Shown here piece by piece: positions 1 to 6,256 of a stretch of DNA of 6,256 nucleotides. The notes below the pieces were generated by a model. It was not told where the DNA came from, did no database searches, and saw only the letters and a program-made list of their open reading frames with translations. Every line of letters starts with the position of its first letter. Positions within the stretch are counted from its first letter, which is position 1. Location of the stretch: assembly GCF_003334385.1 (NCBI RefSeq), contig NZ_QOWN01000077.1; one strand, given 5' to 3'. The stretch is from Escherichia coli (lineage in GTDB: Bacteria > Pseudomonadota > Gammaproteobacteria > Enterobacterales > Enterobacteriaceae). The translations under genes and the position numbers were made by a program.

Positions 1-20
1 TTATCGTGAGAGTAATTCAT
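1..20 (-). CDS. insL: IS186 transposase, first 6 codons only (MNYSHD); remainder lies outside the window
   Basis: Minus-strand ATG AAT TAC TCT CAC GAT beginning at position 20, 55 bp inside the putative IS terminus at 75. Six codons alone are weak evidence; the call depends on the adjacent inverted-repeat match. Confidence 0.45.
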
Positions 21-75
21 CGGCACGTTAAATCATATCAGGCGTAATACCACAACCCTTAAGTTAGCGCTTATG
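1..75 (-). mobile_element. IS186 (IS4 family) terminal segment; element continues beyond the window start
   Basis: Plus-strand 53-75 caacccttaagttagcgcttatg is the reverse complement of CATAAGCGCTAACTTAAGGGTTG, which I recall as the 23-bp terminal inverted repeat of IS186. On the minus strand an ATG at 20..18 opens MNYSHD, matching the recalled N-terminus of the IS186 transposase InsL. All three plus-strand frames are closed by stops within 1-67, so the flanking cynR frame cannot extend upstream. Identification is from memory, not a database search. Confidence 0.6.
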
Positions 76-341
76 GGCTACATCCACAGGTGGTCATTGA
101 GGCGAACTCAATTAGCGCGGTTCTGGAGCTGATTCGCCGCACTTCCCTTTCCACATTGTTACCAGCAGCGATTGCCACACAACATGACGGGCTTAAAGCT
201 ATTTCTCTTGCCCCGCCACTACTGGAGAGAACGGCGGTTTTGTTGCGGCGGAAAAATAGCTGGCAGACAGCCGCCGCGAAGGCATTTTTGCACATGGCGT
301 TGGATAAATGCGCGGTTGTTGGCGGAAATGAATCACGGTAG
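76..341 (+). pseudogene. cynR: 3' fragment of cynR (LysR-family regulator of the cyanate operon), truncated at the IS186 junction
   Basis: The frame translates ..[86 protein letters not shown] and ends at TAG 339-341, which matches the CynR C-terminus as I recall it. An in-frame TAA at 60-62 lies inside the putative IS inverted repeat, so only about 88 C-terminal codons of a ~299-aa protein remain here. Convergent orientation with codA matches the K-12 codA/cynR arrangement. Confidence 0.75.
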
Positions 342-369
342 CCGCTGACACAGGTCTGCGGCTGGAATT

Positions 370-449
370 GCCTGATGCGCTACGCTTATCAGGCCTACGA
401 GTTCAGTGCTCTACGTAGGCCGGATAAGGCGTTCACGCCGCATCCGGCA
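370..449. repeat. REP pair (BIME-like): gcctgatgcgctacgcttatcaggcctac (370-398) and inverted gtaggccggataaggcgttcacgccgcatccggca (416-449)
   Basis: Classic enterobacterial REP palindromes (GCCTGATGCG...TTATCAGGCCTAC and GCCGGATGCGGCGTGAACGCCTTATCCGGCCTAC families), in inverted orientation. Confidence 0.8.
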
Positions 450-569
450 TAAACTACAGCTGGCAGACAGCCGCTGCGAAGGCATTTTTGCACATGGCGT
501 TGGAGGAATGCGCGGTTGTTGGCGGGAATGAATCACGGTAGCCGCTGACACAGATCAGCGGCTGGAATT

Positions 570-649
570 GCCTGATGCGCTACGCTTATCAGGCCTACGA
601 GTTCAGTGCTCTACGTAGGCCGGATAAGGCGTTCACGCCGCATCCGGCA
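570..649. repeat. Second copy of the REP pair, within tandem-duplication copy 2
   Basis: Same sequences as 370-449 shifted by 200 bp; lies just 3' of the codA stop (678-680) and so is placed to act as the codBA 3' stem-loop or terminator. Confidence 0.8.
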
Positions 650-677
650 TAAACTAAGCTCGCTGTAACCCAGTCGT

Positions 678-1961
678 TCAACGTTTGTAATCGATGGCTT
701 CTGGCTGCTCCAGATATACGGTGGTTTGTGCCGGTTGTGTGCTGGCAATCACCTTGCCGCCACGTACCGAATAACGTACCGGAACCTGACGGCGCAGCGC
801 ATCAAACCCATTTTCAGCCGGCAGGATAATCAGGTTGGCGCTGTTTCCGGCGGCAATGCCGTAATCCTGCAAATTCAACGTCCTTGCGCTGTGGTGGGTG
901 ATTAAATTCAGGCCATCGTTAATCTGCCCGTAGCCCATCAACTGGCAAACATGCAGCCCCATATGCAGCACTTGCAGCATATTCGCCGTTCCCAGCGGAT
1001 ACCACGGATCGAAGACATCATCGTGACCAAAGCAGACGTTAATGCCGGACTCCAGCATCTCTTTAACGCGCGTGATGCCGCGACGTTTTGGATACGTATC
1101 GAAACGTCCTTGCAGATGAATATTGACCAGCGGGTTGGCGACAAAGTTAATACCGGACATTTTCAGCAAGCGGAACAGGCGTGAGGTATACGCCCCGTTA
1201 TAGGAGTGCATTGCCGTGGTGTGGCTGGCGGTGACTCGCGCGCCCATGCCTTCATGGTGCGCCAGGGCAGCAACGGTTTCGACAAAGCGCGACTGCTCGT
1301 CATCGATCTCATCACAGTGAACGTCGATGAGACGGTCGTATTTTTGCGCCAGGGCGAAGGTTTTATGCAGCGACTCCACGCCGTATTCACGGGTAAATTC
1401 AAAATGCGGAATCGCCCCCACTACATCTGCCCCTAAGCGTAACGCCTCTTCCAGCAACGCTTCACCGTTGGGATACGACAAAATCCCTTCCTGAGGGAAG
1501 GCGACGATTTGCAGATCAATCCACGGCGCGACTTCCTGCTTCACTTCCAGCATTGCTTTCAGCGCAGTTAGCGTTGCATCCGAAACATCGACATGGGTAC
1601 GCACATGCTGAATGCCGTTGGCAATCTGCCATTTCAGCGTTTGCCATGCGCGTTGTTTCACATCGTCATGGGTTAATAACGCTTTGCGCTCGGCCCAGCG
1701 TTCAATGCCTTCAAACAGCGTGCCGGACTGATTCCAGTTCGGTTGTCCGGCGGTTTGCGTGGTGTCCAGGTGAATATGTGGCTCCACAAACGGCGGTATA
1801 ACTAAACCTTGTTCGGCATCCAGGCTGTTTTCAGTTATGGGCATCACGCCGGATTGCGCATCAATGGCGCTGATTTTTCCGTCCTGCAGATGAATCTGCC
1901 ACAGCCCCTCTTCGCCTGGTAACCGGGCGTTAATAATTGTTTGTAAAGCGTTATTCGACAC
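678..1961 (-). CDS. codA: Cytosine deaminase (amidohydrolase superfamily), 427 aa, GTG start
   Basis: Translation [38 protein letters not shown]...[10 protein letters not shown] matches E. coli CodA as recalled, with the metal-binding motifs PHIHLD, VHCDE and CFGHDD. The ORF track starts at ATG 1976, but the known protein begins 5 codons later at GTG 1961..1959, preceded by GGAGG (minus-strand ATGTGGAGGCTAACAGTG). Stop TGA at 680..678. Confidence 0.95.
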
Positions 1962-3210
1962 TGTTAGCCTCCACATGCGTCATTGCTGCTGTCGTTTTAC
2001 GATTCAAAATCGGGTTAAGGATCAGATAGCTCAGCGCGCCACCTAATACCGCGTTGACCGGAACAATTCCCGGTAACCAGTGGCCTGCAGCAATCCCCAA
2101 GGCGACCGCCAGAATCGCCACCCAATTGACACTCATCATACGCGTGGTCGCAAAGTGCTCATAGCGGCGACGGTTCATCAGATAGTCGGCGATGATCACG
2201 CCACCCACTGGAGGAATAGCTGCCGAAAGGAAGGTCAACCAGCCGACAAAATTGTTATACAGCCATAATGCGCAGACCGTACCGATAATACCGTTGATTA
2301 CCGAAAGGGTTTTGCTCGACATCCCGGTAATGTTGGCGAAACCTAAACCCGACGCATAGAGTGCGTTATCGTTGGTGGTCCAGATATTCAGCCCCAGCAC
2401 CACAATCGCAGGCAGCAGCAGGCCCTGAGCAATCATCACATCAGAGATATCCGCCATGCCCAGTGCCGCAGCGCCCGCTGCACCGAAAATAAACATCAAC
2501 GAGTTGCCGAGGAAAAAGGCCACCATCGCCACCAGCACCGCCAGTTTGGCATTGCGACCAAACCGGACAAAGTCAGCGGTGAGCGTACCCGCACTGATAA
2601 ATGACCCCACAACCAGCGCCAGCGCGACATTGAAATCTAACGGTTGTGCGGGAACGACCGCTTTTAATGCGTCCAGGCCGCCCATGCCGTTAACAGCCAG
2701 CCACACGGAATAACCGCCCAGGCAGGCGATAGCCGGAACCGCAATCACCGAAAGAACCGTCAGCGCCGAAATGCCAAAAAAGACGGTGACGGTCATCAGT
2801 AAACCGGAAACGGCAATCAGCAAATTAATATCCAGCCCGGTTGCCTTACCCACCGGAATGGCAAACATCGCCACACCGACGCCAAACCAGCCAACCTGAG
2901 TTCCGCCCAGTAGCAGTGAAGGCAGCCATGAGCCTTTAACACCAAACGAGAAGCGAGCAAGAAGATGAGTGGTCAGGCCGGTTTTTGCGCCAATGTAACC
3001 GAGAAATGAAGTGTAAATACCGAGGAGAAGATTACCGATGAGAACTGCGAGGAAGAAATCATGATAGCTAAGACCGGTTCCGAGAGTGCCGCCGGTCCAC
3101 ATACTGGCGGAAAAGAAGGTTAATCCCAGCATGACGAACGTCAATGCCAATACCCCTTTCCGCGCCGACTGCGGGACTGGCCCCTGGCTAAAGTTGTTAT
3201 CTTGCGACAC
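1951..3210 (-). CDS. codB: Cytosine permease (NCS1 family transporter), 419 aa, GTG start
   Basis: Translation [33 protein letters not shown]...THVEANSVE matches E. coli CodB as recalled and is a hydrophobic multi-helix membrane protein. GTG start at 3210..3208 with AAGGGGGA Shine-Dalgarno upstream; stop TAA at 1953..1951 overlaps the codA start by 11 bp. Confidence 0.95.
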
Positions 3211-3276
3211 GAAATTCCCCCTTTTTGCTGTTTGAAACCCAAAAAATCCGCCGCATTCTATTCATCTGAAGATAAA

Positions 3277-3292
3277 AAGCAATCGTTTTCGT
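3277..3292 (-). promoter_or_regulatory. Putative PurR operator (PUR box) of the codBA promoter
   Basis: Minus-strand ACGAAAACGATTGCTT matches the PurR consensus ACGCAAACGTTTGCGT at 13 of 16 positions. It lies about 70-85 bp upstream of the codB GTG, consistent with known purine repression of codBA. Confidence 0.5.
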
Positions 3293-3297
3293 GGGGA

Positions 3298-3325
3298 AAT
3301 ATATTTTTTATATGAATGAGTGCAA
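3298..3325 (-). promoter_or_regulatory. Candidate sigma70 promoter for codBA: -35 TTGCAC (3325..3320), 16-bp spacer, -10 TATATT (3303..3298)
   Basis: Read from the minus strand: TTGCAC TCATTCATATAAAAAA TATATT, placing the transcription start near the PUR box. Motif-level prediction only. Confidence 0.3.
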
Positions 3326-3362
3326 AAAGGTGGGGGAAAAATTATCGGTGTAAAAACAGTGG

Positions 3363-3543
3363 GTAGGCCTGATAAGACGCGTCAGCGTCGCATCAGGCAT
3401 CTGAGCATGGTGTCGGATGCGACGCGAGCGCCTTATCCGACCTACGGTTCAGGTCCGTAGGCATGATAAAACGCGTCAGCGTCGCATCAGGCATCGGCAC
3501 ACAGTGCCGGATGCACCGCGCGACGCATCCGACAATAACCTAC
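3363..3543. repeat. BIME cluster of four REP elements in alternating orientation (3363-3399, 3411-3445, 3458-3494, 3506-3543)
   Basis: gtaggcctgataagacgcgtcagcgtcgcatcaggca, tgtcggatgcgacgcgagcgccttatccgacctac, gtaggcatgataaaacgcgtcagcgtcgcatcaggca and gccggatgcaccgcgcgacgcatccgacaataacctac form two ~95-bp units. The last REP overlaps the stop codon of the upstream ORF (TAG at 3542..3540). Confidence 0.8.
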
Positions 3544-3812
3544 TCTTCCATCGCCTGGCGGATCTGATCCAACGACGCAGGATCATCAATGGTCGTCAGA
3601 TCTCCAGGATCGCGTCCTTCGCAAATCGCCTGGATCGTGCGGCGCAGCATTTTTCCGGATCGCGTTTTTGGCAATTGCGAGACAAACCAGACGTGCGCCG
3701 GGCGGCCAAAGTTGCCAATCTGGCTGTCCACCAGCGCCATAATCGCCTTCTCTTGCGAGTGCGCCACATCACGATCTTCCAGACTGTCGCTCTCTTTCGG
3801 AATGACAAACGC
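3540..3812 (-). pseudogene. prpE: 3' remnant of prpE (last ~89-92 codons plus native stop), fused to yahJ
   Basis: Acyl-CoA synthetase C-terminal signature LPKTRSGKMLRR, and a position immediately upstream of codB separated only by the REP cluster, as for prpE-codB in K-12. The junction is inferred near 3805-3830 (protein ..DASCSAEAVA / FVIPKESD..). Confidence 0.75.
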
Positions 3813-5126
3813 CACCGCCTCGGCGGAACAGGAGGCGTCCACCAGCACAAAGCTGGCGTCATCCTGCGCTTTTGGCCATACACGCTCGCCTTTTTCATTC
3901 AGCGGCAATACATCGCCAGTGGCTAAAAACAGCGAGCGGGAGAGGTTCTGTTCGTTAGGACGAATATAGAGCTGCGCGTACAGATTGGCTTTTTCCAGCA
4001 TGTCGCCCAGACCATAAGGCGACCAGTGGTCGATAACGCTGTCAGTGCCAGTCATCACTTTTACGCCTTTGTCGTGCAACTGTTTGAGCGGCATATGCAG
4101 CGTGCCAATCGGCACCGTCGAGGCGATAGAAATTTGTTGCACCACCATCCGGTTCGCCAGTTCATCTACCTGTTGCTCGTTGAGCGTTGCCAGCGCAAAG
4201 GCGTGACTGATGGTCAGCTTGCCCTTCAGCTGTGGCGTTTTCTCTACCGTTTCAACCATATAATTGATGGCTGCCACGCCTGCCGGAGTGGTTTCGTGCA
4301 GGTGAATATCGACGCCTTTGTCGTAGTCCAGCGCAATCTGGAACATGGTGTCGAGGGATTTTTCCATCGCGCCATCAACACTGGTCGGGTCCAGGCCGCC
4401 GACGTAATGCGCCCCCGCCTGCATCGCTTCACGCATTAAAGGTTCAGATTTCGACAGCAGCAAACCGTGCTGCGGGAAGGCGACGATTTCACACTCAAAG
4501 CCCGCCTGACGTCGCGCCAGCACCGCCTGCAAATTTTGCAGATTTTTCAGGCCGGAAACCGGTTCGATATTGCAGTGGCTGCGGGCAATGGTGGTGCCTT
4601 TCGACTGCAATAAATCAATCAGTTTTTCTGCCCGCTCCTGAGTGTACGGTTGCAGTTCCGGCAGCATTTTCTGCTCGAGTTTGATCATGTCCTGGATGGT
4701 GGTGCCTGCCGGACGATTGAGCGAGCGCCACGGCCCGCCGTAAAAGGTTTTGTCGAGATGAATATGCATGTCGCGGGTGGTGGGCAGCATCAGCTTACCG
4801 CCAGCGTCATAGTGCGGCAGCGTGGCGTCCGGATGCAGCTTGTTCTCGCGCAGGGCGACAATTTTGCCGTCCTGAATCTCCACGGTCTGGCGCGCCGTGC
4901 GGGTCTGCACCGCCACGCCATTTTCGTAGTCAAAACCGGTTTCCAGCAGCACGTTATCGAGATAGTAATGCGGGTCAGTGATTTTCATGGTGTTGTTCGC
5001 TTCGCAGTTTAGGGTGCCAGCTACCGCCGCATGGGCGAGCGGCACAGAGGTACCAAACAGCGCGGCGGCGGTGACCATCTTACCGCTCTGGCTCAGAAAT
5101 TCACGGCGGCTATTGCTTTCTTTCAT
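3540..5126 (-). CDS. yahJ: Chimeric ORF, 528 aa: Tat-signal amidohydrolase (YahJ-like putative deaminase, ~439 aa) fused in frame to the C-terminal 89 aa of propionyl-CoA synthetase PrpE
   Basis: N-terminus MKESNSRREFLSQSGKMVTAAALFGTSVPLAHA carries a twin-arginine motif (SRREFL). The body has amidohydrolase motifs DMHIHLD, DIHLHET and GTDSVIDHW. The C-terminus FVIPKESDSLEDRDVAHSQEKAIMALVDSQIGNFGRPAHVWFVSQLPKTRSGKMLRRTIQAICEGRDPGDLTTIDDPASLDQIRQAMEE contains the acyl-CoA synthetase PKTRSGK motif and matches the PrpE C-terminus as recalled. ATG at 5126..5124 with AAGGA upstream. Confidence 0.8.
   Translation of the reverse strand: MKESNSRREFLSQSGKMVTAAALFGTSVPLAHAAVAGTLNCEANNTMKITDPHYYLDNVLLETGFDYENGVAVQTRTARQTVEIQDGKIVALRENKLHPDATLPHYDAGGKLMLPTTRDMHIHLDKTFYGGPWRSLNRPAGTTIQDMIKLEQKMLPELQPYTQERAEKLIDLLQSKGTTIARSHCNIEPVSGLKNLQNLQAVLARRQAGFECEIVAFPQHGLLLSKSEPLMREAMQAGAHYVGGLDPTSVDGAMEKSLDTMFQIALDYDKGVDIHLHETTPAGVAAINYMVETVEKTPQLKGKLTISHAFALATLNEQQVDELANRMVVQQISIASTVPIGTLHMPLKQLHDKGVKVMTGTDSVIDHWSPYGLGDMLEKANLYAQLYIRPNEQNLSRSLFLATGDVLPLNEKGERVWPKAQDDASFVLVDASCSAEAVAFVIPKESDSLEDRDVAHSQEKAIMALVDSQIGNFGRPAHVWFVSQLPKTRSGKMLRRTIQAICEGRDPGDLTTIDDPASLDQIRQAMEE
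5028..5126 (-). other. Predicted Tat (twin-arginine) signal peptide of the YahJ-like protein, ~33 aa, likely cleaved after AHA
   Basis: S-R-R-E-F-L motif followed by a hydrophobic stretch VTAAALFGTSVPL and an AxA site (AHA|AVAG). Confidence 0.55.
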
Positions 5127-5135
5127 CTTACGTCC

Positions 5136-6086
5136 TTACGTTTTAATAATATGAGTGCCCGTTTCGCCGCGCAGCGCCGCAGGCAGGCATTCCGGCGTGG
5201 TGATAATCACTTCTTTGCCGCCTTGTTCTAAAAATGTCAGGCTGGCGATGATTTTTGGCAACATGCTGCCGGGCGGGAAATGCCCTTCCTGCATATAGCG
5301 GGTCATGGTGGCAATATCCACCCGATCGAGCGCCTGCTGCTGCGGTTTGCCAAAGTGAATACACACTTTTTCGACGCCAGTGGTGATCACAAGAATGTCG
5401 GCGTGAATTTCACGGGCCAGCAGCGCGGTAGAGAGATCTTTGTCGATAACCGCGTCCACGCTTTGGTAATCTCCCGCGTCAGTACGCACTACCGGAATTC
5501 CACCGCCGCCCGCGCCAATTACGACAAAACCTTGTTGGATCAGCGCTTTAATGGCAGGTGCTTCGACAATACGTTTCGGTTCCGGCGAGGCGACCACGCG
5601 GCGATAGCCCCGCCCGGCATCTTCAACAAAACACCAGTCAGGGTTTGCCTTTTGTAATTCGTCACGCTGGCTGTCACTAAAGAATGCGCCGATGGGCTTG
5701 GTGGGATGGGCAAAACCTGGATCGTTTTTATCCACTTCCACCTGAGTCACCACGGTGACGGCTTTCTTCTCGCCGTGACGCGCCAGCCGGTTATTCAGCG
5801 CCTGTTGGATCAGATAGCCGATGCCGCCCTGCGTATCTGCCACACAGTTCGCCAGCGGCGTTAAGGGCAGCCCTTCGCGCTTGTGGGCAATCTCCGCACG
5901 GCGTAAATCCAGCCCGACCTGCGGCCCGTTGCCGTGGGTCAGCACAATGTCGTAATCGGAAGCCAGCATTTCCAGCACCGTATCGGCGACGGCTTTCACC
6001 GCCTCCGCCTGATGCTCAATCGACTGGCTGGCGTTATCTTTGATAATGCTGTTGCCACCAATGGCAACGACCACAAGCTCTTTCAT
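5136..6086 (-). CDS. yahI: Carbamate kinase-like protein (amino acid kinase family), 316 aa
   Basis: Translation MKELVVVAIGGNSI...LTHGNGPQVG...VIGAGGGGIPV... carries carbamate kinase / amino-acid-kinase signatures and matches E. coli YahI as recalled. Stop TAA at 5138..5136 lies 9 bp upstream of the yahJ ATG, suggesting an operon. Confidence 0.9.
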   Translation of the reverse strand: MKELVVVAIGGNSIIKDNASQSIEHQAEAVKAVADTVLEMLASDYDIVLTHGNGPQVGLDLRRAEIAHKREGLPLTPLANCVADTQGGIGYLIQQALNNRLARHGEKKAVTVVTQVEVDKNDPGFAHPTKPIGAFFSDSQRDELQKANPDWCFVEDAGRGYRRVVASPEPKRIVEAPAIKALIQQGFVVIGAGGGGIPVVRTDAGDYQSVDAVIDKDLSTALLAREIHADILVITTGVEKVCIHFGKPQQQALDRVDIATMTRYMQEGHFPPGSMLPKIIASLTFLEQGGKEVIITTPECLPAALRGETGTHIIKT

Positions 6087-6136
6087 GTTGTTATGTCCGC
6101 TACAGAGGGTGATGGGGTTATGACCAACGCCAGACT

Positions 6137-6256
6137 GCCTGATGCGCTACGCTTATCAGGCCTACAATTCTCGCGCCACTCGTAGGCCGGATAAGGCGTT
6201 CACGCCGCATCCGGCAATGGTGACAAATGCCTGATGCGCTACGCTTATCAGGCCTA
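6137..6256. repeat. BIME/REP cluster of at least three REPs (6137-6165, 6182-6216, 6229-6256), running off the window end
   Basis: gcctgatgcgctacgcttatcaggcctac, inverted gtaggccggataaggcgttcacgccgcatccggca, then gcctgatgcgctacgcttatcaggccta; the same REP family as at 370-449. Confidence 0.8.

Follow-up and report, generated by a model that had tools for sequence, protein, structure and literature searches.

The regulator gene cynR at the start of the sequence analysed here is split by a copy of IS186, and the split very probably reflects a simple, ordinary insertion that inactivated the gene. The sequence, called the window below, is 6,256 nt long and is the whole of contig QOWN01000077.1 (assembly GCA_003334385.1) in reverse orientation. 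As proposed here, a complete 1,339-bp IS186 would have jumped into cynR within codons 212-215, duplicating the 10-bp target GGCTACATCC. Beyond the element would lie the 5' two-thirds of cynR and the second copy of this target. The insertion would split the effector-binding domain of CynR, and cyanate induction of cynTSX would be expected to be lost, given what is known of LysR-type activators and of the cyn operon. The same cynR allele is already known from public genomes, where it is annotated as a split pseudogene, and IS186 behaves in it as expected; nothing in the analysis conflicts with existing knowledge of this element. Two points are new, if only mildly so: cynR and cynT are recurrent natural hot spots for IS186, and the lineage of the window probably carries both insertions.

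The IS186 end and the cynR remnant

The reverse complement of bases 1-75 matches the K-12 MG1655 element IS186A exactly, from the first base of the element onward (position 191 of locus L018; NC_000913.3). IS186 belongs to the IS4 family, and its InsL protein is a cut-and-paste DDE transposase of 370 amino acids (PF01609). The initial annotation had read the terminal inverted repeat of IS186 at bases 53-75 and six transposase codons running outward on the minus strand, and both readings hold. The 23-nt repeat was found in none of 200 shuffled sequences with 3 mismatches allowed, and every IS186 copy examined is bounded on either side by the identical 23 nt. The insL start codon lies at position 56 of the element and is followed by AAT TAC TCT CAC GAT, the same offset as in K-12 insL1 (b0016, NC_000913.3). 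These codons are all of InsL that the window contains, the rest of the element being outside the contig, and complete genomes with this insertion carry insL in full (WP_001300563.1, PF01609). The copies of IS186 borne by cynR in E308, EC416, OkiPb01676 and STEC367 are each identical to IS186A at 1339/1339 positions.

Repeats lie at both ends of the contig, IS186 at one and REP-like tandem copies at the other. The first base of the window falls within IS186 because short-read assembly stopped at a multi-copy element. Thus the IS186 at the window start is cut by the assembly boundary and is not itself truncated. The contig end is an assembly break and hence gives no evidence that cyn or lac DNA has been lost.

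The cynR reading frame begins immediately after the element. Translation from base 76 ends in GGNESR followed by the stop codon and corresponds to CynR residues 212-299 of 299, so the frame starts in the middle of the gene, as had been claimed. Base 75 (G) matches cynR as well, by chance; the junction was placed between bases 75 and 76 because the symmetry of the inverted repeats assigns base 75 to IS186. The fragment is convergent with codA, and REP elements and codA follow it downstream as in K-12. Intact CynR is a LysR-type protein with HTH_1 and LysR_substrate domains (Pfam hits), and the break in the gene comes at codon 215 of 299, within the effector-binding domain (PDB 2HXR and 3HFU, residues 63-299). 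A complete cynR open reading frame, with the N-terminal HTH_1 and the whole substrate-binding domain, is absent from the window. Judged from its sequence, the stretch 76-341 is a pseudogene, left over from the gene for the LysR-type cynTSX activator, and could not encode a functional regulator; in this sense the cyanate regulator is disrupted, as first read. PGAP describes the equivalent piece in E308 as "incomplete; missing N-terminus", and the contig is appropriately annotated with cynR as a pseudogene split by IS186. The insertion leaves CynR residues 1-215 followed by 19 IS-encoded residues, plus a promoterless remnant of 88 codons. An outward promoter in the IS end driving an 83-aa GTG open reading frame at 90-341 was considered and rejected, as no promoter-like site was found in window positions 1-700.

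Table 1. Features of the window, with the cynT junction of related contigs in the last line
Feature	Position	Strand	Remarks
IS186 transposase-proximal (left) end, first 75 nt of the element	1-75	-	75/75 against K-12 IS186A
Terminal inverted repeat of 23 nt, CATAAGCGCTAACTTAAGGGTTG	53-75	-	single exact match within the window
First six codons of insL, MNYSHD	3-20 (ATG at 20-18)	-	reads out of the window
cynR 3' fragment, residues 212-299 and TAG at 339-341	76-341	+	100% identical to K-12 cynR
Copy of the 10-bp target-site duplication, GGCTACATCC	76-85	+	cynR codons 212-215
Tandem repeat, two copies of 199 nt	258-656 (258-456 and 458-656)	+	unrelated to the IS event
codA	678-1976 (ORF)	-	intact; ORF list and 100% K-12 identity
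codB	1951-3210	-	intact; ORF list and 100% K-12 identity
Deletion junction prpE'-yahJ'	3810-3819	.	single remaining copy of CGCCACCGCC
cynT IS186 junction	L023 1-17; L022 1-25; K-12 L003 3977-3987		1.28 kb from the cynR site

Outside the element the window closely follows K-12 MG1655. Bases 75-3819 are 100% identical to K-12 from the interior of cynR to the interior of prpE, and bases 3810-6256 run from K-12 yahJ to yahI, again at 100% identity. Between these two parts 11,881 bp are missing relative to K-12, and the missing segment lies between two 10-bp direct repeats, CGCCACCGCC. The deletion removes the 5' part of prpE, prpDCB, prpR, yahO-yahK and the final 21 codons of yahJ. What it leaves is an in-frame fusion ORF of 528 aa at 3540-5126 on the minus strand, in which YahJ residues 1-439 run into the C-terminal 92 residues of PrpE. 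Seven contigs in the public collection carry this fusion, and all 5,426 complete genomes lack it. The deletion named at the outset is therefore real, and codBA does lie between two independent rearrangements, IS186 in cynR on one side and the prpE'-yahJ' junction on the other. A literature search for the yahJ-prpE deletion turned up only an unrelated genome-reduced strain. In strain M23314 (NZ_CP133916.1, which matches window 395-6163), codB stands beside yahJ with IS621, of the IS110 family, at the join; from its sequence, the prp-yahK interval seems to have been lost there independently.

Several repeats were also seen in the window. Each of the two 199-nt tandem copies downstream of the cynR remnant consists of the last 84 nt of cynR, stop codon included, and a REP element; they differ from each other at 6 positions (97% identity). 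The arrangement is the same in K-12 (window 75-700 matches at 100%), where PGAP annotates the second copy as a partial "hypothetical protein". MDR_56, OkiPb01676 and STEC367 apparently have fewer 199-nt copies, with codA closer to cynR. REP/BIME-like repeats lie at 3363-3533 and 6136-6256. The latter, at the opposite contig end, matches three tandem copies from K-12 yahH-yahI with 96-98% identity.

Complete genomes and a sister assembly with the same junction

Junction searches were made in 5,426 complete E. coli genomes. IS186 sits at exactly the cynR position of the window in 14 of these, in the orientation of the window in 10 and in the opposite orientation in 4, and searches with the partner junctions returned the same 10 and the same 4 genomes. 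The distance from junction to junction is 1,338-1,339 nt in all 14, the length of one IS186, and all 14 carry a 10-bp duplication of the sequence from base 76 on the far side of the element. The duplicated sequence GGCTACATCC is found at the other IS end in E308, RM14721, STEC367 and the loci L008-L014, and a variant, GGCTGCATCC, is present on both sides of the IS in MDR_56 and OkiPb01676. An apparent IS length of 1,444 nt in L014 comes from a scaffold gap of 755 N and is without biological meaning. IS186-end matches numbered up to 24 per genome in these searches, with 23 in SCU-104.

Annotation was inspected in five of the 14 genomes (E308, RM14721, MDR_56, OkiPb01676 and STEC367). In all five the far side of the element carries the 5' part of cynR, intact cynT, cynS, cynX and lacY; lacA is annotated in four, STEC367 being the one without it. 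The read-through product predicted at the far junction, CynR residues 1-215 continued into the IS (234 aa), was found in 103 blocks of the public collection.

Both rearrangements of the window recur together in a draft assembly. GCA_002190145.1, the sister assembly, shares with the window the yahJ-prpE fusion as well as the junction between IS186 and the 3' part of cynR. Its contig LYBI01000036.1 ends at that junction, with GGATGTAGCC directly followed by CATAAGCGCTAACTTA and an overlap of 16 nt into the IS. Its far side was sought with the predicted cut CynR product, residues 1-215 plus ISANL (220 aa, derived from the 16-nt IS overlap). The same assembly encodes this product on contig LYBI01000234.1 (L023; 1,313 nt), which corresponds to positions 3976-5256 of the K-12 locus L003 and carries the 5' parts of cynT and cynR. 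At the cynR end it reads GCGGGGCTACATCC (in shorter form GGGGCTACATCC) followed by CATAAGCGCTAACTTA, and includes the partner copy of the duplication. The sister genome therefore retains the 5' part of cynR together with the partner duplication. For the genome of the window itself, the far side is predicted to be the same. A simple insertion would give it a cynR 5' junction in which GAGAAAGCGGGGCTACATCC meets CATAAGCGCTAAC, and the order on the far side would be GAGAAAGCGGGGCTACATCC, then CATAAGCGCTAACTTAAGGGTTGAACC. As short-read contigs, the sister contig and the window cannot tie the cynR 5' junction and the window junction to one and the same IS copy.

These observations bear on the choice that the initial annotation had left between an insertion of IS186 into cynR and an IS-associated deletion of the 5' part of cynR and perhaps of neighbouring cyn and lac DNA. 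Insertion is the favoured reading, since all 14 complete genomes with IS186 at the site are simple insertions and the sister genome keeps the 5' part of cynR with its partner duplication; deletion is kept as a minor rival. The duplication of about 10 bp starting at base 76, looked for on the far side of the element, is present in the 14 genomes and in the sister assembly alike.

The sister contig has a second IS186 junction at its other end. LYBI01000234.1 starts with TTAAGTTAGCGCTTATG followed by GGCGATCCGCCCC, an IS186 end against the interior of cynT, and the 1.3-kb cynT'-cynR' segment thus has IS186 ends on both sides. A Logan contig with a 25-nt overlap shows that the cynT junction is formed by the transposase-distal end of IS186. 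The window junction is transposase-proximal, and therefore the IS end beside the 5' part of cynR is the distal one. If the orientation in the sister is that of the Logan contig, the two copies are inverted around a 1.28-kb segment, cynT'-Pcyn-cynR'; the 17-nt IS overlap of the sister contig at cynT is too short to tell orientation. The lineage of the window probably carries the second junction too. Two IS186 copies would then bracket the cynT'-Pcyn-cynR' segment, and an interruption of cynT like that of the sister assembly would disable the operon a second time.

That IS186 does target cynT is borne out by other genomes. GCA_037022815.1 has a simple insertion there, with an 11-bp duplication, GGCGATCCGCC, followed by cynS and cynX. 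The collection lists the truncated CynT' product (179 aa) in 140 blocks, and in 100 of these the contigs are shorter than 2 kb. Among the 5,426 complete genomes, cynT::IS186 is present in one, SCU-104. The two insertions affect the same operon, and they differ in what is interrupted: a carbonic anhydrase gene at cynT and the regulator gene in the window.

Rearrangements beside IS186 and other possible origins of the junction

IS186 copies in the cyn operon can seed larger rearrangements, and two cases were found. In GCA_047262435.1 (L009 6645-7982) the junction between the 5' part of cynR and IS186 is the same as in the hot-spot insertions, and the other IS end lies against fdeC, an inverse autotransporter adhesin gene. 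Elsewhere fdeC is 36-43 kb away in the same orientation, which points to an IS186-adjacent deletion of 36-43 kb in L009; it removes the 3' part of cynR, codBA, prp, yah and bet. In SCU-104 (NZ_CP053284.1, L024 7688-9026) the far side of the IS186 in cynT is iap-cysDNC, and the element therefore marks a large chromosomal rearrangement.

A comparable event in the genome of the window, with IS186 at the cynR hot spot and the far side rearranged by an adjacent deletion towards cynTSX-lac or by recombination between two IS186 copies, is improbable. The L009 deletion at the same cynR 5' junction and the joining of cynT to iap-cysDNC in SCU-104 are precedents for it, and a pair of IS186 junctions separated by 1.28 kb, such as the sister assembly has, is a substrate for inversion. 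The window holds one junction only, its far side being outside the contig. However, all 14 complete genomes with IS186 at the site are simple insertions, and the sister assembly, which has the same rare deletion, keeps the 5' part of cynR and the matching duplication.

It is far less probable that bases 76-341 are an extra, duplicated copy lying beside the IS while an intact cynR stands elsewhere at the locus. The last 84 nt of cynR are indeed naturally duplicated in tandem, at 458-541, but K-12 has this tandem copy too, and the IS plays no part in it. Moreover, the complete genomes with the junction have no further cynR sequence apart from a 5' part that ends with the duplicated 10 bp, and the contig with the 5' part of cynR in the sister assembly likewise stops at the duplication. 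A chimeric IS186-cynR join made during draft assembly would suit a short-read contig with both ends in repeats, but it is scarcely credible given that the identical junction occurs in 10 complete genomes and in the independent draft L005, and that a proper target duplication accompanies the junction in those genomes.

The simple insertion was also compared with a known deletion that ends in cynR. In the laboratory strain ME8067 (NZ_CP028703.1) an IS1-bounded lac deletion leaves, as in the window, a truncated 3' part of cynR beside codA, abutting an insertion sequence. In ME8067 the element is IS1 instead of IS186, the breakpoint in cynR lies further upstream, yaiP is on the far side, and cynTSX, lac and more are missing. 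This deletion resembles the delta-lacX74 class and is of the kind that the initial annotation had weighed as its second alternative. On sequence comparison the window junction does not match a deletion of the ME8067 type.

An origin from a K-12 laboratory strain with a delta-lacX74-type deletion was likewise rejected. Over 11.3 kb just outside the extent of the window, a contig of the sister assembly has 9 mismatches to K-12. No genome among the 5,426 complete ones, laboratory strains included, combines the two rearrangements, IS186 in cynR and the yahJ-prpE deletion, and the ME8067 breakpoint is elsewhere in cynR. The source of the DNA is a close natural relative of K-12 and not K-12 as such.

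The cynR and cynT sites as targets of IS186

IS186 has hit both cynR and cynT repeatedly in nature, and each site is a hot spot. At cynR, both orientations occur at one base, and at least two events are therefore needed. In MDR_56 and OkiPb01676 the variant GGCTGCATCC stands on both sides of the IS, so a different cynR allele was duplicated in these genomes. Within 300 nt of the IS, on either side, their flanks differ both from K-12 and between the two genomes, and STEC367, with the opposite orientation, has yet another flanking haplotype. Together these data indicate at least three independent insertions at the cynR site, probably five, and with at least three the site qualifies as a hot spot. 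It provides a clean natural example of the site specificity of IS186, in which insertions of either orientation, and in more than one cynR allele, share a single nucleotide position.

The targets share a common shape. The cynR target, gcGGGGCTACATCCac, reads GGGG-CTACAT-CC, a G run, about 6 nt and a C run of two bases. The target of IS186A in K-12, GGGGATCACTCCCC, is GGGG-ATCACT-CCCC; that in cynT, GGGGCGGATCGCCC, is GGGG-CGGATCG-CCC, of the form GGGG-N7-CCC; and that in SCU-104, GGGGAACACCCC, is GGGG-AACA-CCCC. The consensus target of IS186 is reportedly (G)>=4 N3-6 (C)>=4. Set against this consensus, the G run and the spacing of the cynR target fit, and its C run is CC, not four or more C, a partial agreement. 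The other targets seen show the full pattern of G run, short spacer and C run.

The K-12 element IS186A (NC_000913.3 15387-16731) is the nearest reference copy, and the 75 nt of the window and the complete copy of E308 are identical to it. It has a 10-bp duplication, GGATCACTCC, in a GGGG-N6-CCCC target, and it sits between dnaJ and hokC/mokC, where no gene is interrupted, whereas the cynR copy interrupts a gene.

A close parallel is the lon promoter. An IS186 hot-spot insertion at that promoter has been described (PMC11251521, citing SaiSree et al. 2001), and the orientation of insL at the site has been tracked (PMC3045373, also citing SaiSree et al. 2001). The lon hot spot, reportedly seen in E. 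coli B and in many laboratory selections (SaiSree, Reddy and Gowrishankar 2001, as cited in PMC3045373 and PMC11251521), involves the same element and a recurrent, precise, G/C-rich target, and insertion there, like that in cynR, inactivates expression of the target gene. The two differ in setting: the lon case concerns a promoter and laboratory selection, whereas the cynR case concerns a coding region (codons 212-215), a weak C run and natural isolates. In the literature examined, no mention of cynR or cynT as a target of IS186 was found; one match to IS186 together with cynR, on CRISPR-associated transposases, was left unexamined.

Recurrent, convergent loss of cyanate detoxification is possible through these sites. 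A wider reading, that the hot spots recurrently, and perhaps adaptively, switch off the cyanate operon in unrelated commensal and livestock E. coli, sometimes as a composite-like bracket, is doubtful. Selection for cyn loss, and mobility of the bracketed cynT'-Pcyn-cynR' segment, are speculation.

Many unrelated IS186 junctions were also returned by the cynR query, at alkB, acrR, crr, mglA and on plasmids. The match at these runs 10-16 nt past the IS end into the cynR part of the query, from which it follows that the flanks of IS186 copies are alike, in keeping with a target recognised by its sequence. Several genomes share the site next to alkB.
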